Positions 4,545 through 60,780 of a stretch of 64,000 nucleotides of DNA are shown here, piece after piece (position 1 is the stretch's first letter; the number at the start of each line of letters is the position of its first letter). This DNA is from an uncultured Hormoscilla sp. (GTDB taxonomy: Bacteria > Cyanobacteriota > Cyanobacteriia > Cyanobacteriales > Desertifilaceae): contig OZ001293.3 in NCBI GenBank assembly GCA_963921275.4, forward strand, positions 4,864,001 through 4,928,000. The letters are read 5' to 3'. The notes beneath the pieces are model-generated. The model made no database searches and was not told the DNA's origin. It saw only the letters and a list, made by a program, of their open reading frames with translations. The position numbers and the translations under genes are program-made.

Positions 4545-4720
4545 TAAGCAAAAATATATTTGGGAATGATACTAATAGGTAGTCCGAAGTCCGCCCAGAA
4601 GATGCTAGGCAGAGCGATCGCCCGATATGGGGAAAAGAAACTTGATGGTAGTACCCTAAGTCCTCAAAATAAGACTAGCATGGAGTTGGAGGGATCTGTA
4701 GTCACAATTAAGTAAGTGTA

Positions 4721-5554
<834 letters not shown>

Positions 5555-5655
5555 AGGAGTAGAAGACAGATGTAAGGGGAAAAGCAGAAAGGGACTTGTA
5601 GCAAGGGCTTAGATAGGGTATACTAAAAAAAATAACAGAATTAGAGGTGGAGTTA

Positions 5656-8508
5656 ATGGCAAAGAAAAGCCGTGGAGTTCCGGCGTTATATTCAGAGATA
5701 AAGGTCAAGCTGGGGATTTCAATGACGCCCACAGGCAGAAAGTTGCTGACTAAGATGGCCGAAAAGGCGGATTTATCCCGCTCGGAAATGGTAGAGCAGA
5801 TCGCAAGAGGGTGTATCTCGATCGAGAGTGCCTCGGCAAAAATGGCGATAATGCTAAAGGAGGCGGTGGAAAATCAAGCTCTAACAGATGCAGAAATAGA
5901 ACAGCTGAGCACGAAGTTTCAGGTGGTCGATAGTGAATTGTCCAGTCCAGTGGAGGATGAGACAGGGTCTGAGGTGCAGTTAGAAAGTTCTCAAGCACAA
6001 GCACAGTTGATTGTAGATTTACAACAACAGATAAAGGAGTTGGAAGCAGCTCTAGCAACTAAGAACGAGGAGATGGTGCCGTTAGAAAATTATGAATCAT
6101 TGCGGCAAGAGTCGGCAGCACAAGCAACTCAGATAGAGGAGTTAGAAACAAAGCTAGCAGAATGGTCCGATCGGGTGCCGCGCTCAGAATATGAAACATT
6201 GCAGCAGGATTCGGCAGCGCAAGCAAGTCAGATAGAAGAGTTGCACTCCAGGATAGAGAAATTGTCGTCTCGGGTACCGCACTCAGAATATGAGTCATTG
6301 CAGGAGTCGTCAGCAGCATTATCAGAGGAGATCGCCTCCTTGAAAGCACAGCTTCAGGCATCTGAGGAGATAATGGCCAGTCAGAAAGAGCGGACAGTGC
6401 CGTTAGAGGAATATGAGTCATTGCAGCAGGACTCGGCAGCACAAGCAAGTCAGATAGAAGAGTTACACTCCAGGATAGAGGAATTGTCATCTCGGGTGCC
6501 AGTCTCAGAATATGAGTCATTGCAGGAGTCGTTAGCAGCATTATCAGAGGAGATCGCCTCCCTGAAAGCACAGCTTCAGGCATCCGAGGAGATGATGGCC
6601 TCTCAGAAAGAGCGGACAGTGCCGTTAGAGGAATATGAGTCATTGCAGCAGGACTCGGAAGCACAAGGGGAGGAGATAGCAGCATTAAAAGCACAGATAG
6701 GCCAGTTGGAAAAGAATGTGCCAGTCTCAGAATATGAGTCATTGCAGCAGGACTCGGCAGCGCAAGCAAGTCAGATAGAAGAGTTGCACTCCAGGATAGA
6801 GGAATTGTCGTCTCGGGTACCGCACTCAGAATATGAGTCATTGCAGGAGTCGTCAGCAGCATTATCAGAGGAGATCGCCTCCTTGAAAGCACAGCTTCAG
6901 GCATCTGAGGAGATAATGGCCAGTCAGAAAGAGCGGACAGTGCCGTTAGAGGAATATGAGTCATTGCAGCAGGACTCGGCAGCACAAGCAAGTCAGATAG
7001 AAGAGTTACACTCCAGGATAGAGGAATTGTCATCTCGGGTGCCAGTCTCAGAATATGAGTCATTGCAGGAGTCGTTAGCAGCATTATCAGAGGAGATCGC
7101 CTCCCTGAAAGCACAGCTTCAGGCATCCGAGGAGATGATGGCCTCTCAGAAAGAGCGGACAGTGCCGTTAGAGGAATATGAGTCATTGCAGCAGGACTCG
7201 GAAGCACAAGGGGAGGAGATAGCAGCATTAAAAGCACAGATAGGCCAGTTGGAAAAGAATGTGCCAGTCTCAGAATATGAGTCATTGCAGGAGTCGTCAG
7301 CAGCACTATCAGAGGAGATCGCCTCCTTGAAAGCACAGCTTCAGGCATCTGAGGAGATAATGGCCAGTCAGAAAGAGCGGACAGTGCCGTTAGAGGAATA
7401 TGAGTCATTGCAGCAGGACTCGGCAGCACAAGCAAGTCAGATAGAAGAGTTGCACTCCAGGATAGAGGAATTGTCATCTCGGGTGCCAGTCTCAGAATAT
7501 GAGTCATTGCAGGAGTCGTCAGCAGCACTATCAGAGGAGATCGCCTCCCTGAAAGCACAGCTTCAGGCATCCGAGGAGATGATGGCCTCTCAGAAAGAGC
7601 GGACAGTGCCGTTAGAGGAATATGAGTCATTGCAGCAGGACTCCGCAGCACAAGCAAAGGTGGTAGCTTCCTTAGAACAACAGATAACGGAGTTGCAACA
7701 TCGGGTGCCATTAGAGCAATATGAATCAGTGCGGCAGGACTCGGCAGCACAAGCAAAGGTGGTGGCAGAGTTACAACAACAGCTGAGTGAGTTGCAAGAA
7801 CATAGTATGGAAACAGAGAATGGGGAGACTGTGTCGTTACAGAGATATGAATCAGTCCGGCAAGAGTCGGAAGCAAAAGCAAAGGTGGTGGCCTCCTTAC
7901 AAAAGCAGATTAAGGAGTTGCTGCAAGAGCGCGTGCCGTTATCTACATATGAACATGTGCGACAAAAAGTTGCAGAACAAGCAACTCAGATCGCCCGATT
8001 AGAAAAAAAGATTAGTCAATATCGGGTGCCCTTAAACAATTATGAAGCGTTGCACCAGGAGTCCCGATCGCAAGCAAGTCAGATGGCCCAGTTACAACAA
8101 CAGATCCGCGAGCTGCAAGGACGGGTGCCATTAGAAAAATATGAAAGTTTGCGGCAACAGTCAGAACAAAAAGAACGGGCGATCGCCGCAATGCAACAAC
8201 AGATTCGGTTATTGTCAGATCGGGTGCCCAAAGAAGAATATGAATCTTTGTGGCAGTCTACCGTTCCGGAAAAATCGGAAAAACAAGCCAAGGTGGTGGC
8301 GCAACTGCAACAACAGCTTAACGGTTTGCAAGGTAATACAACTCAGACCAATGGAAATGGGCCGTTAGAGAGTTACGCATCTTTGCTACAGCAGTCTCAA
8401 GAACAGGCAAAGTTGATTGCCACCCTACAGCAAAAAGTTGCCGAGTTGCAGTCAACTTCCAGAATTGGAGAAGCTCATTTAAATAAGTGGCGTCAGCGCA
8501 ATTTTTAG
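5656..8508 (+). CDS. RHH/CopG-family DNA-binding domain fused to a long tandem-repeat coiled coil
   Basis: N-terminal GVPALYSEIK...MTPTGRKLL...LSRSEMVEQIARG is RHH-like; about 20 VP(L/V)xxYESLQQ repeats follow. Confidence 0.75.
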   Translation: MAKKSRGVPALYSEIKVKLGISMTPTGRKLLTKMAEKADLSRSEMVEQIARGCISIESASAKMAIMLKEAVENQALTDAEIEQLSTKFQVVDSELSSPVEDETGSEVQLESSQAQAQLIVDLQQQIKELEAALATKNEEMVPLENYESLRQESAAQATQIEELETKLAEWSDRVPRSEYETLQQDSAAQASQIEELHSRIEKLSSRVPHSEYESLQESSAALSEEIASLKAQLQASEEIMASQKERTVPLEEYESLQQDSAAQASQIEELHSRIEELSSRVPVSEYESLQESLAALSEEIASLKAQLQASEEMMASQKERTVPLEEYESLQQDSEAQGEEIAALKAQIGQLEKNVPVSEYESLQQDSAAQASQIEELHSRIEELSSRVPHSEYESLQESSAALSEEIASLKAQLQASEEIMASQKERTVPLEEYESLQQDSAAQASQIEELHSRIEELSSRVPVSEYESLQESLAALSEEIASLKAQLQASEEMMASQKERTVPLEEYESLQQDSEAQGEEIAALKAQIGQLEKNVPVSEYESLQESSAALSEEIASLKAQLQASEEIMASQKERTVPLEEYESLQQDSAAQASQIEELHSRIEELSSRVPVSEYESLQESSAALSEEIASLKAQLQASEEMMASQKERTVPLEEYESLQQDSAAQAKVVASLEQQITELQHRVPLEQYESVRQDSAAQAKVVAELQQQLSELQEHSMETENGETVSLQRYESVRQESEAKAKVVASLQKQIKELLQERVPLSTYEHVRQKVAEQATQIARLEKKISQYRVPLNNYEALHQESRSQASQMAQLQQQIRELQGRVPLEKYESLRQQSEQKERAIAAMQQQIRLLSDRVPKEEYESLWQSTVPEKSEKQAKVVAQLQQQLNGLQGNTTQTNGNGPLESYASLLQQSQEQAKLIATLQQKVAELQSTSRIGEAHLNKWRQRNF
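6170..7660 (+). repeat. Coding tandem repeats including a near-perfect 543-bp duplication
   Basis: Sequence at 6241 recurs at 6784 (offset 543); units begin GTGCC...GAATATGAGTCATTGCAG. Confidence 0.9.
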
Positions 8509-9413: not shown

Positions 9414-9949
9414 ATTATTCTGAGGTAATTTGTGAATTTATCGTTCCAGAGTCATCGAAAACTCGCAAGAACTCCAGAGATTCGAGCGGGGAAGACAACC
9501 AGATTGTCAGCATTAGCGACTTTGGCTGAGGGAACCCAATCGCGCTTCTACCTGTTGCATGCTGTATACCACTTCTCCAATATTCTGCGTCGGAGCCAAC
9601 TGACCTTGGGCATTCATAAAACGCTAAGATGCCATGAGTTCCATTAGGGGTCGAGCTGGGAATCGCTTCCCAACCCTCCCTTTCGAACCGTGCATGCGGT
9701 TTTCATCGCACACGGCTACTGGTTAGTTGGACCTTGTCATTGGCAGGATTACTGGGGATTGCTCCCTTTGTCCCTCTTCTTATGCAGTTTTTCCCCTTTA
9801 TGGTAGTCGATAGGACTGTTTCGTATCTAGCTCCGGAAGGTTCGCGGGGGGTATCCAGGAAACCACTTATACCGCTCTTTGCTAACATTGCCCCTGTCTC
9901 GTCATTAGGGGACTTTTCAAGTTTTACCCGGCTAGAGTTTTAGTCCATA

Positions 9950-10961
9950 ACTCAAGTTGCGACCTATAAAAATTGGATACAAAAAGCTATGATAAAGAGA
10001 ATTATTTTCAACTCTAATCCCTTAGATGTAACAGCATGAATTGACTTGGGAAACAAATTTGTGATTCGACTAAAACAGGTTTCAACTTGTTTTCTTGTTA
10101 CTTTTTGTATATATTCAAAACAAGAATATTCTTTTCTTTTTGAGTTCTTTTTTCGCAAAGGTTTTAACATTATACTTGACGACTCTTTTAGTAAATCCTC
10201 TAATTGATAATCATTATAAGCTTTATCTCCATAAACTATTGAATTTGATGGTAAGTCAAAGCCAAAAGATTGCAAAACTTTAAAATCATTATAACTACCA
10301 GGATCTAGATAAAATTCTATTGGCTTTCCATTTTTGTTTACCAACATATGAACTCTTAATCCATAAAAATAACGTTTTTTACTGGCAATATACCCTCGAT
10401 ATTCTTCCTTGTTATAAATTTGGCATCTATCAATCCTAATATTATCACATACTGGCACCGGGAAACTATCAAGAATATATTCTTGACCCGGATTGAGCTC
10501 TTTAAATGTTTGAGCTATAACTTGGAAGAAAAACATCCAAATTGGTTCCTCAATATTGTGTAATCGACGATTGAACCTACTTTTACTTAACAGATTTTTT
10601 ATATACTTGTGTTGGACCATAAATTGACAAGAGCGATCGTGGTGTCCTCCGAAAAAATATGCAGCAACTAATCCGACTGTCATCACTTCGGCATTGTTCA
10701 TTTTTACTTGTGGATCTTCTTTTATATTTAACGCTTTTAGTAGCTCGTCACAAAGAACAAAAATTGTTGTAATCATATCTTCCATCATCTACATCCCCCA
10801 GCAATTAACTATTATTTTAGTACATTATAACCTATAAACAGCCAACCCGCTGTATAGCACAAAAAAAATATAATTTTGTATCAAAAGCTACGAAATATCC
10901 CAAATATCTGTAAAGTCTAAGTGGGTAATTCATATTTTTTTTAATAGGTCGCAACTTAGGT
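9950..10961 (-). mobile_element. IS982-family element, copy 1 (1012 bp)
   Basis: TIR AC(T/C)(C/T)AAGTTGCGACCTAT; target duplication TAGTCCATA; AT-rich. Confidence 0.9.
9964..10788 (-). CDS. IS982-family DDE transposase
   Basis: ILDSFPVPVC, YFYGLRVH, YGDKAY, RKQVETCFS motifs. Confidence 0.9.
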   Translation of the reverse strand: MMEDMITTIFVLCDELLKALNIKEDPQVKMNNAEVMTVGLVAAYFFGGHHDRSCQFMVQHKYIKNLLSKSRFNRRLHNIEEPIWMFFFQVIAQTFKELNPGQEYILDSFPVPVCDNIRIDRCQIYNKEEYRGYIASKKRYFYGLRVHMLVNKNGKPIEFYLDPGSYNDFKVLQSFGFDLPSNSIVYGDKAYNDYQLEDLLKESSSIMLKPLRKKNSKRKEYSCFEYIQKVTRKQVETCFSRITNLFPKSIHAVTSKGLELKIILFIIAFCIQFL

Positions 10962-11571
10962 TAGTCCATATTACAATCTAGGATTTCTCCTGATTTTTGG
11001 TACGTATTAGGGATACTTCCACCCAAGATTTCCAACTATATCCGACCCACGTCTGCCGGTACATTCCTGCACCACTTATACAAGGAGTTACCCCTGTCCT
11101 TTGCTTCTTGGGCCATCTCTCTCCACATGGCTTACGCTTATCATCTAACTGGTCCCTATCTCCTGACCACCGGTCGATAGTCGAGTAGTTATGGACAGCA
11201 CACGTGGAGTTACTTCGTTCCCTGGTATCATTTCACGATGTTTTTAGGTCCCTGCTTTACCCCGGGAGCTACTTTGAGTGTGATGTTGGCCATATGCAAC
11301 AGCCAACACTAGCTACCATTTCCTTTTTAGGCCAGCGTGTAAGCCTTCTTCCGCTGGTTACACATAACGAGGCTTTCACAGATTCGTTTTCCTAACCATG
11401 AGCATCTTTCCTAGCGGAGTTGCCGACTTTGGGCTGTCAGCTATCCTACATTTAAGTCCTTGCTCCGCACCACGGTGATGTCACTCCGCAGCACTAAGGA
11501 CCGGTGTCACCCCCACACCTGGGGAGAGGGAATTTAACCCCCATGATGACCAGAGTTACCATATTGAGCCT

Positions 11572-12440
11572 GTGCGATTCGTTCTAGCCTAACGTGGTCA
11601 AACACGGAACGCTAGCCCGGTTTCATTAGCCGGGAACTCTGACCGCATGGGGGTTAAATTCCCCTCCCCCCAGGTACGGGGGTGACACCGGTCCTCGGTG
11701 CTACGAAGCGACATCATCGTGGTGCTAAGCGAGGACTCAAATGTAGGATAACTGGCAGCCTAAGCCGGTGACGCCGCTAGGAAAGATATCCAAGGTTAGA
11801 GCAGGCAAACATGTGCAAGCCTCGTTATAAGGAACCAGCGAAATAAGGCTATATGCGCTGGCCTAAAAAGGAAATGGTAGCTAGTATTAGTTTTAGACTC
11901 TGGCTAATATAGTACTCAAATAGCTCCCGGGGTATAGTGTGGACCTAAAGGTATCGCGAAATGTTGTTAGGGAACGAAGTAACCTCTCGTGTGCTGTCCA
12001 TCAGGACAAGTTAGATGTTAAGCGCAAGCCACGGGGGGAGGGATGGCCCAAGAAGCGAATGCCCGGGGTAATTCCTGGGATAACATCTACAGTAATGTAG
12101 ATGATGCTGGGTAGCCAGCGCTGACGTGGGTCGGTGATACTAGGAAGCTGCTGGAATGAGTAATCCTAAAAAGCCACGGAACTAATCCGAAACGCAAGTG
12201 GAGGATAAGGTATGGATAACTGGTAAAACTGACTTGAAAATGGTGATACTAACGGTTATCAGAACAACCACTCGCTAAACCAGGAAAGGGAAGAAAAGAC
12301 AGGCGGCAAGGGCTAACGGAAGTAATTCCTATTAAGTCTACCTATGAAAAGGGCCTAGTACCCAGTAGCCGGATGCGGTGAAAATCGCAAGTCCGGTTCC
12401 TCAAGGGAGGGTCGGGAAGCGATTCCCGGCTCGACCCCAT
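11572..12440 (+). ncRNA. ORF-less group II intron (inner), antisense within the outer intron
   Basis: 5' GTGCGATTCG; domain V TAGCCGGATGCGGTGAAAATCGCAAGTCCGGTTC; ends CTCGACCCCAT (end may be 12440-12442); EBS1 AGACTC versus exon GAGCCT. Confidence 0.88.
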
Positions 12441-12638
12441 CCGATTATGATTAGTTTTGGTTCTAAACATTCAGTCCAATTTTGGCTCGGCTTTTCCGTG
12501 TTTGTACAGGTTAGGCCGAAACGAGTCGCACTGCACATTTGTGTTTAGAGTTGTTTGAGCACCTGCATCAACAATGTCAATGACCGAGTTGAGTTTATAT
12601 TCGATAGACAGCAGAACTTGTGGGGACTTCGACGAAAA

Positions 12639-34434: not shown

Positions 34435-34630
34435 TCCTTCCGGAGTTAGGCATTTATTTAGTCTGAGACTAACCATAAGGGGTTCCATTGCATGAAGAAA
34501 GGAACAAAGGGAGTAATCCTGAGTAATTCTACCTGTGACAATAGGCTATCTACCCAGTAGCCGGATGCGGTAAAGAGAGTCCGGTTCCGAAAGGGAGGGT
34601 CGGGAGGTGACAATAGGCTCGACCCCGACT
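34435..34630 (+). ncRNA. 5'-truncated group II intron fragment (DIV-DVI)
   Basis: CCAGTAGCCGGATGCGG...TCCGGTTCCGAAAGGGAGG...CTCGACCCCGACT; aligns with the 3' part of the 9643 intron. Confidence 0.8.
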
Positions 34631-40079: not shown

Positions 40080-41125
40080 ATGACCAGCATGACTGTGAAA
40101 TCCTTCCCAGCGGAAGGAGATGGTTTTCCTTGGTGGGCAGGCAACGCTCGTCTAGCGACGCTCTCAGGGCGTTTGTTGGGCGCTCATGTCGCTCACGCCG
40201 GTTTGATAGTGCTGTGGGCGGGAGCCTACACTCTGTTTGAGCTTTCGCGCTTCAACCCAGAACTGCCCATGTACTCCCAGGGCTTAATTGTGCTGCCAAA
40301 CCTGGCAAGGTTGGGTTTTGGCGTTGGTGAGGAGGGAATAGTCAATACCTACCCCTACTTCGTCATTGGAGCTTTGCACCTGATCAGCTCTGCCTTCTTG
40401 GGTTTCGGTGGCATCTTCCATGCCCTGAAAGGACCGGAAACCCTAGAAGAGAATTTTGACTTCTTTGGCTACCGGTGGGACGACAAAGACAAAATGACCA
40501 CCATCCTGGGCATTCACCTGATTCTTCTGGGTATCGGTGCTGAACTGCTGGTGGCCAAAGCAATGTTCTTTGGCGGACTCTACGATCCGACTGTCAGTCA
40601 TGTGCGCGTCATTTCTGGCCCGACCTTGAACCCAGCCGTCATCTTTGGCTACCTATTCGGTGGGGGTGGCACAAACTGGCTAGCAGGTGTCAACAACCTC
40701 GAAGATGTTGTCGGCGGTCATATTTGGATCGGCATCCTCTGTATTGCTGGCGGCATCTGGCATATGAAAACCGAGCCTTTCCCCTGGACAGAACGCCTCT
40801 TTATTTGATCGGGAGAAGCTTATCTGTCCTACAGCATCGGCGCTCTAGCCTTAATGGCCTTTATTGCCACGTTGTTCGTATCCGTTAACGATCTGGTATT
40901 CCCAGTCGAGTTCTACGGACCAACTTTAACTATCGGCATGGATCGCTTTCCCTCTTTTGAAGGTGTAGAGTTGCTGACCTCTCGCACTTGGCTGGCCAAT
41001 GCTCACTTCTGGTTGGGTTTTTTCTTCCTGCAAGGTCATATATTCCACGCACTTCGAGCCGCTGGTTTTGACTTCCGTCAGGGCAAAGTCAGCCAAGCAG
41101 ACAGCTTGACGGAGGAGGTCGCCTG

Positions 41126-41126: not shown

Positions 41127-42946
<1,820 letters not shown>

Positions 42947-42947
42947 A

Positions 42948-44198
42948 ATGACAGCAACTGCAACTATCTCCGAACCCAAGTATGGCTGGTGGGCGGGCAA
43001 TGCCCGTTTGACCAATCTTTCGGGAAAACTTCTGGGCGCTCATGTTGCCCAAGCTGCTCTGATCGTATTTTGGGCGGGGGCGTTGACCCTATTTGAACTC
43101 TCCCAATACAACCCAGCCGAACCGATGTACTCCCAGGGTTTAATTCTGCTGCCTCATCTTGCCAGTCTCGGCATTGGCGTCGGTGATGGCGGGCAAATTG
43201 TCGATACCGCGCCTTATTTCGTTATTGGTGTTTTGCACCTAATTAGCTCAGCGGTTCTGGGTGCTGGGGGCATCTATCATGCCTTGATCGGTCCGGAAGT
43301 CTTGCCTCAAAACCATAGCTTCTCAGGCTTCTTTGGCTATGACTGGGAAGATTGGGACAAGATGACAAGCATCATTGGCATTCATCTGCTGCTGGGACTG
43401 GGGGCTTGGCTTCTGGTCGCTAAAGCTATGTTTGTTGGGGGACTCTACGACCCTAATTTAGAAGCGGTGCGAGTTATATCACAACCGACTCTCAATCCCC
43501 TACAAATTTTTGGCTATCTTGTTGGTCAAAAAGGTGCCGAAGGCATGGCTGCGGTTAACAACTTAGAAGATGTTGTTGGCGGTCATATCTATGTTGGCCT
43601 GTTGTTGATTAGTGGTGGCTTCTGGCATATCCTGACTTCGCCGAAACTGTGGGCGCAGCAGGTACTATTTTGGTCTGGTGAGGCTTACCTGTCTTACAGT
43701 CTGGGTGCTTTGGCTTATATGGGGTTTTTGGCAGCTTATTTCATCACTGTTAATGACACCGTTTACCCGACTGCTTTCTACGGTCCTCTCGGTTTCTCGA
43801 AGACGGCAGCAGGTTTTGTTACCTCGCGCACCTGGTTGGCAACGAGTCATTTTGTGCTGGCTATTCTGTTAATGTTCGGTCATATTTGGCATGCGGTGCG
43901 GGTGCGATCGCTCGCGGCAGGCTTTGATATGCGCCTGGGGCAGTTTGTCACGCAAGTACATAATTTTGATGTGACGCTTTTGTTCTTGCGGAATCTGCCC
44001 ATTTACCGCCGGGGTTTGTCACCTGTATTCAGGGGATTGGAAATTGGCATGGCTCACGGCTATTTCCTGATTGGACCTTTGGTTACTCTCAATTCTATAG
44101 AGGATCCCCAGTTGGCCAATGAAAAGGAAGAATCTTCTCGATTTAGACTCGTACTTCAGAAAAATCGGTTGCGAGTATCAACCAATCATTTGTCCTAA
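42948..44198 (+). CDS. IsiA-PsaL fusion protein, PsaL part truncated
   Basis: Full IsiA domain, then [32 protein letters not shown] (PsaL signature), then an unrelated tail. Confidence 0.8.
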
Positions 44199-57960: not shown

Positions 57961-58547
57961 ACTACAGTTAGAGCTCTCCTTTCTCTTGCTTTCCCTGCTA
58001 TGTCCTTGACTCTTTCTTCTAGACCGTGTAGGGCAATGTTTGCCAATAATGGCGATATTACTCCCCCTTGTGGGGTTCCCTCATCGGTCTTATGAAATTA
58101 TCCTCCATCAATCACGCCTGCTTTTAGCCATGCGCGGATCTGTCTCCGGAAGATTGGTGAGGTATTTAGTTTTTTGAGTAGCGCCTTGTGGTCAATCCTA
58201 TCAAAGGATTTTGCAATGTCTGCATCTAACACTCATTTGGGTTTCTGTTTGATGCTCAGGAATATTGCTTCTATTGCGTCATGGCTTCCTCTCGGGCGTC
58301 TGAATCCATATGAGTTGGGTTCCATATACGCTTCCCATTCTGGTTCTAACGCAAGTTTTACCAACCCTTGAAGTGCGCGGTCGTACATTATGGGGATTCC
58401 TAATGGACGTTTTTCGTCTCTCCCTGCTTTGGGTATCCACACGCGCCGTGCGGGCCTAGCCTTGTTTGAGATTTTTAGTTGTCCTACCAATTCTAGTCGT
58501 TGCTTGGTTGTGAGAGATTTGACACCGTCTATACCAGCAGTCTTTTT
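57961..58547 (-). pseudogene. Group II intron reverse transcriptase fragment (outer twintron)
   Basis: KKTAGIDG, RPLGIP, SYGFR, LDADIAKSFD, GTPQGGVISPLLANIAL with stops. Confidence 0.88.
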
Positions 58548-60780
58548 GTCGGGTAAGAGAGGACACGTCACCGTGCCTCCCTCCCCTAAGAACCGGACTT
58601 GACAGTTTCCCATCATCCGGCTCAAGCCTCCTAAACCTCAGAATGTTTACCTGTGTGTTCATGCCTGTGACAGGCAAGGTGTTGGTGGACAAGGTTTTCT
58701 GCCTTGTCTGTTCCACCGTCTTTCACCCTGATAATGTAATGGGTGTGCAGTTTTTCTCCGTTGAACAAGTGTTCGCCACATACTGGGCATTTCCAATTTT
58801 GCTTGAGGGCAACCTGATAGAGTTTTGAACCTTTTGCCCAGTATGATTTACAGTATTTTGTTTGGCGGTTTTGCCAATATTTGGCAAGTGACGGGTCGTC
58901 AGGAGATGCCGTGCCTTTGACTTTGACATGACGTACTATGGGAATGTGTGCCAGTTTGGGTAAAGTTATTATTGTGTCCTTACCCTGTCTGGATTTAACC
59001 GATTGAGCAAAATTCCACTTTGTCCCGTTGATTGTTCTGAAGTATCTCGATGCTACCCACTTTTTCCCCTTATTCGGATGTCTTCTTAGAGGGTGTCTGT
59101 AAATAAATCCTTAAGCAGCGAGACGATTCAACATTAGTGAAATCATGGCAATGTGAACAACCGATTCGCTGATTTCTGGCAAACGCTCGTAATCTTTGCT
59201 CAAGCGCCGTTGTCGTCCTAACCAAGCTAGAGTCCGTTCTACAACCCAAGGTCGAGGTTGAACTTCAAAACCTTTACCTTTGCTGGGGCCTTGAACTACC
59301 TCCAAGCTTATATTGCACCCTCTCACTACCTGCTGCAATCGTTGGCCTCGATAGCCCCGATCAGCCCAAACCTGTTGTAACGTGGGGATACTTAGACTTG
59401 ATTCGGCCAGCAACATCCGCCCCGCTGTCACATCGGCCACATTCGCCGCATGAACAATTACCACTAATACCAACCCAATGTATCGACAAGGATATGACGT
59501 TTGCCCCCGTTGACTTTCTGGCCCCCATCAAAGCCGCGATCGCTGCCGCCCACGTCAGTCGTTTTCACAGATTGACTATCTTAGATGGCCCCTGTGCGTT
59601 GGGCATTGCGCCCAGATTGTTGACGCACGCGGGTTCGCAAGGTCTCGTGAATCCCTTGCCAGACTCCGAGTTTCTGCCATTTTTGCCGTACACCGTCAGA
59701 GGCGGTGGGAAGTCATGGGGTAATAGTTGGCACAACCACTTTCAAAACAGGTTTCCCAAACGGGTTCCAGGGCATTCTTGACTATTGCCTGTGCTATTCT
59801 ATCTTTGAGCGTCGGAATACCTAATGGTCTTTGTTTTCCATTTGCTTTTGGTATGTAGACCCTTTTAGTTGGGCGAACTTTCCATAGGGTATTTGCCCGC
59901 ATTTCTCTAATTAGCTTCACTCTCTCTTTTGGGATTAGTGCCGTCTGACCATCTAGACTGGACGTTTGTTTCCCTTTATTCTCGAGGGTGACTCTTCGCA
60001 CAGATGATAGTAGGTTAGAGTAACTGCATAACATCAACTTCATCAGGCTTCTTACCTTATTCCATTGACCGTTCTGGGTTGCACAATATATTCTCTGTCT
60101 CAGGTTTCTAACAGGCTTCAACACGAGTTTTCAATCAATGGACCCCCAGTCTAAAGAGCGTTCCTTCATTCCGATGTCATTGCTGACCCTATCTTTCATG
60201 TCGGTTCGATTCCTTTACAAGTTTTCTATCGTTGGAGACCTGCTGAAGTCTGCCATCTTTCGATGTATGGCAAATCTTGAACCCCTATCCCTAGCATTAC
60301 CAAGGGCTTTCGCTTTTTCTAGCATCCTTTACCCTCTAGGTAGTTCCGTCTTCCTTAGGGTTGACCTACTCATATCATCGACCTGACCTGAGAACCTATA
60401 GGGTTTACCCTGTTCCGTACATTTAACCTTCAACCGATTCGGATTCCACTTATATTCCGGTGAGGATTTTGCTCTCTCGTTATTAGCCCAAGGTACTGCT
60501 AATAACCTACTCACTTGCCTTTTGGCTAGACTGTATCAGCCTTATTTCACTCTTCAGACATAACGGAATTTGCAGTGATTCACAAATGTTAACCCTTTTC
60601 GGTTTTCCCCTTGCCCTTTTACCGATTTCGGCTCTCAGTCGGAGGGCTTTCATGCCTTGCATTCCAGTAGTTTCATTACTTACTTCTACCCTGGAGTGTT
60701 GCCACTCCTTTTATGTGGGGACGGAAAGAGAGAGTTTTCCGAGACGGCTCCCCTGTTATTCAGCGCTGATGCGTCCTTAC
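58548..60780 (-). mobile_element. Decayed RT-encoding group II intron (inner twintron)
   Basis: 3' DV/DVI GAGCCGGATGATGGGAAACTGTCAAGTCCGGTTC...TTACCCGAC; HNH-like C-terminus (CPVCGEHL); RT N-terminus near 59700-60199. Confidence 0.8.
59098..59700 (-). mobile_element. IS5-family transposase fragment
   Basis: [18 protein letters not shown] segment, WADRGYRG, WVVERTLAWL...RLSKDYE. Confidence 0.82.

Follow-up and report, generated by a model that had tools for sequence, protein, structure and literature searches.

ORF-less group II introns with one scaffold and many guides in the genome of an uncultured Hormoscilla sp.

Can one ribozyme scaffold be directed to many different sites of a single genome by changes in its guide loops, and what protein would serve it there? 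The question is raised by 64,000 nucleotides (nt) of DNA from an uncultured Hormoscilla sp. (assembly GCA_963921275.4, contig OZ001293.3, positions 4,864,001 to 4,928,000 of the forward strand), here called the window. In it, a reading made from the sequence alone had noticed three related introns without open reading frames (ORFs), with different exon-binding site 1 (EBS1) loops that fit their own targets. That sequence-only reading had proposed a diversified family of RNA-programmed elements with one scaffold and distinct guides, likely served by a shared trans-acting reverse transcriptase (RT). We examined the window's genome whole (7.03 Mb, 7 contigs), and the claim that a common scaffold carries different guides, each matched to its target, is borne out there by 51 EBS1 hexamers at 287 sites and by both guide loops, which covary with the exons. 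The elements are very probably ORF-less, IIB-like bacterial group II introns, that is, non-autonomous retroelements which are guided by their EBS segments, obtain an RT/maturase in trans and are retargeted by guide changes.

The elements of the window are true group II introns, as their EBS2 pairing with intron-binding site 2 (IBS2), their GUGCG ends, their domains V and VI and their seamless insertion show. Those on which the argument turns are listed below with their guide and target segments, in window coordinates.

4721..5554, plus strand: intron 1, a complete ORF-less group II intron of 834 nt; it starts GTGCGA, and its 3' end is set by empty-site paralogs.
4715..4720, plus strand: IBS1 of intron 1, AGTGTA; 6/6 pairs with EBS1, one of them G.U.
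4708..4712, plus strand: IBS2 of intron 1, TTAAG, positions -13..-9; 4/5 pairs with EBS2 TCTAG, in the register of the genome-wide scan.
4975..4979, plus strand: EBS2 of intron 1, TCTAG, from the genome-wide pairing scan and covariation.
5042..5047, plus strand: EBS1 of intron 1, TGCACT, positions 3-8 of a 9-nt hairpin loop.
11572..12442, plus strand: intron 2, a complete ORF-less group II intron of 871 nt; it starts GTGCGA and lies antisense within intron 3.
11566..11571, plus strand: IBS1 of intron 2, GAGCCT; 5/6 pairs with EBS1, one C.A mismatch.
11828..11832, plus strand: EBS2 of intron 2, TAAGG; the family IBS2 consensus is CCTTA at -13..-9.
11895..11900, plus strand: EBS1 of intron 2, AGACTC, in the homologous hairpin loop, from pairing and covariation.
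9643..12531, minus strand: intron 3, a 997-nt ORF-less group II intron in three pieces (12531-12443, 11571-10961 and 9949-9643).
12532..12537, minus strand: IBS1 of intron 3, TGTGCA; 6/6 pairs with EBS1 TGCATA, one of them G.U.
11293..11298, minus strand: EBS1 of intron 3, TGCATA, in the homologous hairpin loop, from pairing.
11360..11364, minus strand: EBS2 of intron 3, TGTGT; 5/5 pairs with ACACA at -13..-9 (window 12540-12544).
41411..42244, minus strand: a second complete copy of the intron-1 family; its 5' exon ends GGTGCA at 42245-42250.

The three loop hexamers of the sequence-only reading, TGCACT at 5042-5047 (+), TGCATA at 11298-11293 (-) and AGACTC at 11895-11900 (+), do occupy the same loop of a homologous hairpin, and they complement their own 5' exons at 6/6 positions in introns 1 and 3 and at 5/6 in intron 2, where GAGCCT leaves one mismatch. 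A further exon that it had quoted, GGTGCA, proved to be the 5' exon of the fourth copy, 42244-41411 (-), with which the EBS1 of that copy forms 6/6 pairs, one of them G.U. Domains V and VI are recognised by Rfam model RF00029, which has five matches in the window at or above its gathering score of 40 bits: among them are intron 1 (5476-5553, +, 47.0 bits), intron 2 (12364-12440, +, 44.4 bits), intron 3 (9643-9720, -, 42.1 bits) and the fourth copy (41413-41489, -, 49.4 bits). No ORF longer than 59 aa is present in intron 1, and none longer than 56 aa in intron 2.

With intron 1 as query, BLAST returned 231 full-length matches across the genome, and a profile of the first ~350 nt of the intron (the 5' profile) returned 502, of which 361 include the 5' end together with the EBS2 segment and EBS1 hairpin. 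On this profile intron 1 scores 406.6 bits and the fourth copy 401.4 bits, the latter with 159.5 bits on the corresponding 3' profile. A 3' end could be assigned to 339 of the 361 copies with an intact 5' region; 322 of these paired copies measure 600-1000 nt and are complete and ORF-less, and the other 17 measure 1000-3500 nt, with nested insertions in most. The families of introns 1, 2 and 3 (EBS1 TGCACT, AGACTC and TGCATA) have 72 complete copies, 139 complete copies and about 9 copies, respectively. For the pairing statistics, the 336 of 361 copies with EBS segments of standard length were kept (25 were left out), and removal of repeated flanks gave 287 sites with 54 EBS2/EBS1 combinations and 51 EBS1 hexamers. 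The hexamer always corresponds to positions 3-8 of the 9-nt loop, and the closing stem of 7-8 base pairs is homologous in all copies by alignment.

Pairing between guide and target is strong and specific across these sites. Cognate EBS1-IBS1 pairing averages 5.21 of 6, versus 2.88 for non-cognate pairs, and is 6/6 at 116 sites, 5/6 at 133, 4/6 at 28 and three or fewer at 10. The chance level is given by the non-cognate loop/exon combinations, 1,313 of 14,350 of which (9.1%) reach at least five pairs and 233 (1.6%) six. When each variant is counted once the mean is 5.16, versus 2.71 +/- 0.15 after permutation (maximum 3.34), and 0/10,000 permutations score as high. The register is unique, since shifting either the EBS1 or the IBS1 window by 1-4 nt lowers the mean to 1.6-2.7. 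A genome-wide scan likewise placed the five-nt EBS2 opposite positions -13..-9 (IBS2), with 3.96 of 5 pairs versus 1.0-2.4 off-register.

Covariation leads to the same result. We aligned 42 sequences, namely the two intact window introns and 40 representatives, one per EBS1 hexamer (40 of the 51). The IBS1-EBS1 helix is 90.8% paired, with 6/6 pairs changed on both sides; the IBS2-EBS2 helix (columns 8-12 with 395-399) is 78.6% paired, with 5/5 pairs changed on both sides; and the stem of the EBS1 hairpin is 96.9% paired, with 7/8 pairs compensatory. All helices together are paired in 92.1% of cells versus 69.5% after shuffling, and 21/25 pairs are changed on both sides, while helices slid out of register are 29-41% paired and 0/500 shuffles reach the observed score. 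Covariation between EBS and IBS, which the sequence-only reading had asked to see in further copies, is thus found both in this alignment and in the permutation test over 287 sites. In local minimum free energy folds of introns 1 and 2 the hexamer is looped out, and in that of intron 3 the stem is longer by two pairs at the expense of the loop; EBS1 is not moved to another place by folding.

Sequence logos of the targets carry the signature of the guides down to the wobble pairs. The intron-2 family logo (118 distinct sites) reads GAGTCT, the exact complement of its EBS1, and where other bases occur, G at -5 and T at -2, they preserve the pairing as G.U; in the intron-1 family (60 distinct sites) the logo is AGTGYA and the secondary bases again keep G.U pairs. 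Sites of the intron-3 family read TATGCA or TATGTA. Conversely, the guides are among the most variable parts of the intron: when 343 well-occupied columns are ordered by variability, those of EBS1 take ranks 4-14 and those of EBS2 take ranks 1-24, at 1.5-1.96 bits versus a mean of 0.57, EBS1 diversity (and not EBS2 diversity) having been the criterion by which sequences were selected for this alignment. The match between loop and exon extends to relatives of the host. The titled records among the matches listed are Hormoscilla sp. metagenome-assembled genomes (MAGs) only, with at least five loci; the four with the canonical GTGCG 5' end form 5-6 of 6 EBS1 pairs, counted by eye, and the fifth, which starts GGGCG and has an uncertain exon boundary, was left out of the count.

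How precisely are these elements inserted? All 361 copies with an intact 5' region start GTG. The AGC triad and a GAAA loop are visible in domain V, and in domain VI an A is bulged out eight nt upstream of the 3' end, which reads ...GACU in intron 1 and ...AUCC in intron 2. These ends, CU and CC, are not the usual A-pyrimidine, and the domain VI tail is one base longer than in the Rfam consensus. The true 3' ends lie one nt beyond the end of the Rfam match; a boundary at the Rfam or profile ends was rejected because 66/66 empty paralogs then show a junction gap of 1 nt. Two other candidates were abandoned with this correction: an apparent '+1 = T/C' signal of the exon is in fact the last intron base, and a column taken for 'EBS3' is its internal partner. 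The terminal base of the intron, U or C, changes together with an internal A or G in 51/54 variants, tentatively a gamma-gamma' pair (the second-best column reaches 46/54). For 68 of 293 distinct sites the genome holds an unoccupied paralog at least 90% identical to the flanks joined in silico, and 68/68 are gap-free across the junction; therefore, insertion is exact to the base and involves no target duplication. Position +1 is A in 92%, 73% and 56% of the sites of three site groups, which would fit a fixed EBS3 = U, and delta pairing of the IIA type is disfavoured by the lack of pairing between +1 and the base 5' of EBS1.

The copies have spread widely and, in part, very recently. Intron-derived DNA amounts to 532,157 bp in 598 blocks, 7.56% of the genome or about one block per 12 kb; all the blocks lie on the large contig C1, and no intron-derived sequence was found in the six small contigs C2-C7 (9-52 kb). 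In the intron-2 family identical sequences make up 61 of the 139 complete copies, and the median copy differs from the consensus at one position per 870 nt; the median difference is also one among the 72 copies of the intron-1 family. Such very young bursts suggest that the element is active now. After removal of duplicates the flanks are distinct at 284-293 sites. Orientation is balanced (154 plus, 130 minus), as expected for endonuclease-dependent insertion, although this is weak evidence, and neither strand bias nor GC skew gave a signal for the insertions genome-wide. The flanks of 255 of the 322 complete copies are not intron-derived; 33 copies lie in intron DNA of the same strand, 16 in intron DNA of the opposite strand, and 18 have one such flank. 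Four junctions are tandems with zero spacer, as would be expected if recognition resides in the 5' exon and an occupied site is entered again by homing to that exon. At C1:5447656-5450267 and C1:826675-824935, three and two intron-2-family copies, respectively, follow one another head to tail with no base between them; only the first copy has a matching 5' exon, a pattern compatible with repeated homing into the 5' junction once a site is occupied.

A mechanism for this spread can be proposed along the lines of retrohoming. EBS2 (5 nt) and EBS1 (6 nt, in a hairpin loop), both in domain I, would be the guide segments of each RNA, and would pair with positions -13..-9 and -6..-1, respectively, of the DNA strand entered by reverse splicing. 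One or more resident ORF-containing introns would supply in trans an RT/maturase with an HNH endonuclease domain, which may stabilise the ribozyme, read a few flanking bases (-15, -14 and perhaps +1), nick the opposite strand and reverse-transcribe the inserted RNA. Transcription, formation of a ribonucleoprotein (RNP) with the trans-acting intron-encoded protein (IEP), nicking by HNH and target-primed reverse transcription would follow in that course, and we infer in the same way splicing, reverse splicing, the use of an RT in trans and the choice of that RT. Point changes in the guides would redirect the scaffold to new sites, and could have produced at least 51 EBS1 specificities and the two recent bursts of 139 and 72 complete copies.

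Candidate helper proteins are plentiful in the genome, and may supply RT in trans. TIGR04416 has 123 genomic matches, 44 of them above its cut-off; 59 RT-like ORFs reach at least 300 aa and 15 of these at least 588 aa, 14 of the 15 with the YADD motif. The three full-length RT ORFs tested contain RVT_N, RVT_1, GIIM and HNH domains, HNH being below cut-off in the divergent one. The best solved relative of a candidate RT is 6me0_C, 'Maturase reverse transcriptase' (E = 2.5e-109), an entry that represents the Thermosynechococcus elongatus T.el4h protein/RNP. Within the window, RTs survive only as broken remnants (57996-58547 and 59732-60019). Several RT genes have been truncated by ORF-less insertions, with, for example, ORFs of 484 aa beside intron-2 copies. 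Such RT ORFs (for example C1 1058395-1060678, 1148426-1150709 and 5986963-5989246), all cut to the same 484 aa, each lie beside an intron-2-family copy in opposite orientation and have the same flanks; this recurrence suggests repeated homing into an RT gene or the spread of a composite element.

Is a single RT shared by all the ORF-less introns? A shared trans-acting RT, as the sequence-only reading had it, is plausible. The alternative that each ORF-less family relies on a dedicated IEP among the diverged resident RT lineages appears unlikely to us, even though it has a basis in the diversity of those lineages: at 90% identity the RT ORFs of 500 aa or more group into 14 clusters, of which thirteen are mutually 67-89% identical and one is an outlier at 40-45%, and in T. 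elongatus some IEPs are reported to be specific and others relaxed (Mohr 2010, PMC2882425). Against it, the scaffold varies very little beyond the guides (mean column entropy 0.57 bits), and 51 guide variants face far fewer RT lineages. Moreover, the target positions that do not pair with the guides are common to all the site groups: at -15 a purine (A 67% and 71% in two of the groups, A+G 95% in the third), an A-rich -14 and A at +1. This is consistent with a common or similar IEP.

A second alternative concerns the order of events. In the single-copy variants the match could have arisen after insertion, by EBS mutations that restored splicing at a poorly matched site, and the covariation would then record selection for splicing and not retargeting that begins with the guide. 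Either order is conceivable for the 36 of 54 EBS2/EBS1 variants that have a single site, and poorly matched, retrotransposed copies are discussed by Mohr 2010 (PMC2882425). Nevertheless, the explanation is improbable. Only 24% of the sites, versus 59% of random positions, are spanned by an open frame of at least 150 codons, and there is no preference for the sense strand (14% versus 12%); since the sites are mostly outside long ORFs, selection for splicing should be weak. In addition, the multi-copy families (such as those with 118, 60, 12, 9 and 8 distinct sites) have one guide and many sites, which is what targeting with the guide first produces.

Finally, the copies might be inert relics multiplied by segmental duplication or recombination, with loop-exon matches inherited from a few ancestral insertions, but this can practically be dismissed: the same flanks do recur where the host sequence itself repeats (138 intron-2-family copies have 118 distinct flanks between them, and the 72 of the intron-1 family have 60), and 33 + 16 + 18 of the 322 copies lie in or beside other intron DNA, yet duplication would bring flanking DNA along, whereas 284-293 different flanks remain after de-duplication with the IBS2/IBS1 pattern as their sole common feature, and 68/68 empty paralogs are seamless to the base.

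Several observations weigh against our reading of these elements as guide-directed ORF-less introns with a helper in trans. At 10 of the 287 sites pairing is at most 3/6, and two rare variants average 1.0 and 1.5 pairs. The folding energies of the EBS1 hairpin are not significant (z-scores -0.6 to -2.3), and support for the hairpin therefore comes from covariation and not from energy. No Rfam model of domains I to IV (D1-D4) matches window 4600-5700 at E <= 1, so that the structural class rests on our own reading; the missing match concerns the models only and has no bearing on group II identity. The position of EBS3 was not located in domain I. As regards the helper, the kinship between the ORF-less scaffold and the RNAs of ORF-containing introns in the genome is only distant: no more than stretches of 35-72 nt of intron 1 align to them, at most 274 nt of intron 2 does so, at 67%, and the 5' profile scores 55-87 bits on ORF-containing introns versus ~400 on ORF-less ones. 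Binding of such an RT to the ORF-less RNAs is therefore not a given. Domain IV shows no clear ORF remnant (best tblastn E = 0.07-1.7); the best tblastn matches overlie domain V, where the RT C-terminus overlaps the RNA. With only short conserved cores aligning, the ORF-less introns are not recognisable deletion derivatives of the resident ORF-containing introns. A scan of public runs yielded no usable RNA run, the best two metatranscriptomes holding 6-7% of the sampled words.

Within the window, the three introns of the sequence-only reading are not in the same condition. Intron 3, which starts at 12531 with GTGCGA, is dead and cannot be functional, as it is split by intron 2, antisense, after nt 89, and by an insertion sequence (IS) element after nt 700. 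Its pieces correspond to nt 1-89, 89-700 and 691-997 of an intact family copy, at 98.9-100% identity by BLAST. The interrupting element is the following.

9950..10960, minus strand: insertion sequence of ~1 kb that interrupts intron 3 and is accompanied by a duplication of 10 nt (intron nt 691-700).

It holds a transposase-like ORF of 274 aa at 9964-10788. The boundaries of intron 2 agree with an intact intron-3-family copy and with public-run contigs that skip exactly 11572-12442; other contigs skip 9940-10960 and have 10 letters in common on both sides of the joint. Both sets of contigs most likely derive from other, uninterrupted copies of the intron-3 family. In more distant organisms (four public contig sets) no contig bridges the intron 1 locus or the intron 2/3 locus, a result that is uninformative on insertion polymorphism. 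The end of the IS element has many near-identical paralogs among the empty-site matches, one of which hosts an intron-3-family copy.

Other features of the window can be mentioned briefly. A solitary 3' fragment with the domain V/VI region lies at 34487-34628 (+), with 101.9 bits on the 3' profile and no 5' partner nearby. The remnant of an ORF-containing group II intron occupies 57996-60019 (-), with the RT fragments at 57996-58547 and 59732-60019 interrupted by stop codons and a domain V/VI match at 58548-58625 (58.5 bits). Three matches to IsrR, the antisense RNA of isiA, at 40476-40653, 42359-42536 and 43344-43518 (-; 98-124 bits), imply tandem isiA-like genes, and copy 42244-41411 sits between two of them. 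An ORF of 953 aa at 5647-8508 (+) is a long series of near-identical units, each of ~60-70 aa, which are rich in E, Q, S and L and have the look of a coiled coil; the 607-aa open frame on the opposite strand is probably an artefact of the repeats.

How widespread is the family? It was found in 4/4 genomes of the same genus that were searched, and in only 1/9 other genomes of the same family, as a weak match. The host is presumably a sponge-associated cyanobacterium akin to Hormoscilla. A 16-nt motif of the 5' end occurs 322 times here versus 1, 17, 44 and 60 times in the four congeners, counts which may be low because three of the four assemblies are fragmented and fragmentation can hide repeats; a control with the reversed pattern gave 0 in all the genomes. 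The difference between 1-60 copies and 322 makes the expansion lineage-specific. Guide-directed retrohoming and trans-mobilised ORF-less introns are both established, so no new mechanism is involved. It is the scale that is new, with ~7.6% of the genome intron-derived, above the published counts that we found (101 and at least 150). We would suggest, as a tentative and still doubtful synthesis, that the genome carries the heaviest group II intron load yet in a bacterium, made up of a non-autonomous lineage that outnumbers the autonomous one by about 20:1, is no recent derivative of the resident autonomous introns, has more than 50 target specificities and inserts repeatedly into autonomous introns and RT genes: a SINE/LINE-like (short and long interspersed element) and partly hyperparasitic relation, in a probable obligate symbiont. 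If this is true, the organism would be a living model of a genome overrun by introns that are served by a common trans-acting protein. Its value is that of a data set and model, in which ~290 natural target sites are set against ~50 guide variants of a single scaffold and from which targeting rules can be mapped directly, including the G.U pairs and mismatches tolerated at each position and the flanks read by the protein. The lineage-specific expansion could also show what releases intron proliferation, a matter tied to ideas on the origin of spliceosomal introns.

In the open literature searched, supplements aside, we found nothing comparable, and term searches of two genome papers on named congeners gave no mention of introns or reverse transcriptases. 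The nearest engineered parallel is provided by targetrons, which are retargeted Ll.LtrB/EcI5 introns. As in the present genome, one ribozyme scaffold is redirected via EBS1 and EBS2 and the protein is supplied separately; unlike targetrons, which are engineered, retargeting here is natural and multiple in one genome.

Among natural genomes, Arthrospira platensis NIES-39 was reported to contain at least 150 group II introns, 71 with and 79 without RT (Fujisawa 2010, PMC2853384), and an automatic pipeline later counted 101 in A. platensis, the largest number among 1,790 bacterial genomes (Miura 2022, PMC8919778). Both A. platensis and the present organism are filamentous cyanobacteria with an exceptional number of introns, which are evenly split or mostly ORF-less. 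The present genome differs in its 322 complete ORF-less copies, its 44 RT matches above cut-off and its 532 kb (7.56%) of intron-derived DNA, and, in the passages seen of the two A. platensis papers, guide diversity is not analysed (PMC2853384, PMC8919778).

The closest likeness is with the group IIB introns TeI3 (ORF-less) and TeI4 (ORF-containing) of T. elongatus, a cyanobacterium whose genome has 28 group II introns, 17 of them ORF-less, in six EBS families (Mohr 2010, PMC2882425). In both genomes ORF-less introns outnumber ORF-containing ones, each family is set apart by an EBS sequence that fits the sites of that family, insertions often hit other introns and IS elements but seldom genes, and A-15/A-14 of the distal 5' exon are preferred; these two bases are reported to be read by the protein in the case of EcI5 and in that of TeI3c mobilised by the TeI4c IEP (PMC2882425). 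The cases differ in scale, with 361 intact 5' regions, 322 complete ORF-less copies and 51 EBS1 hexamers here. They differ also in descent, since the ORF-less introns of T. elongatus are evident deletion derivatives with ORF remnants, whereas those described here are remote from the resident ORF-containing introns and have no clear remnant, and in the host, which here is presumably not a thermophile. Mobilisation in trans was shown experimentally in T. elongatus (PMC2882425), while here it is proposed. In every respect tested, the present introns appear to behave as those of T. elongatus do, and the mechanism that they would follow is already known.

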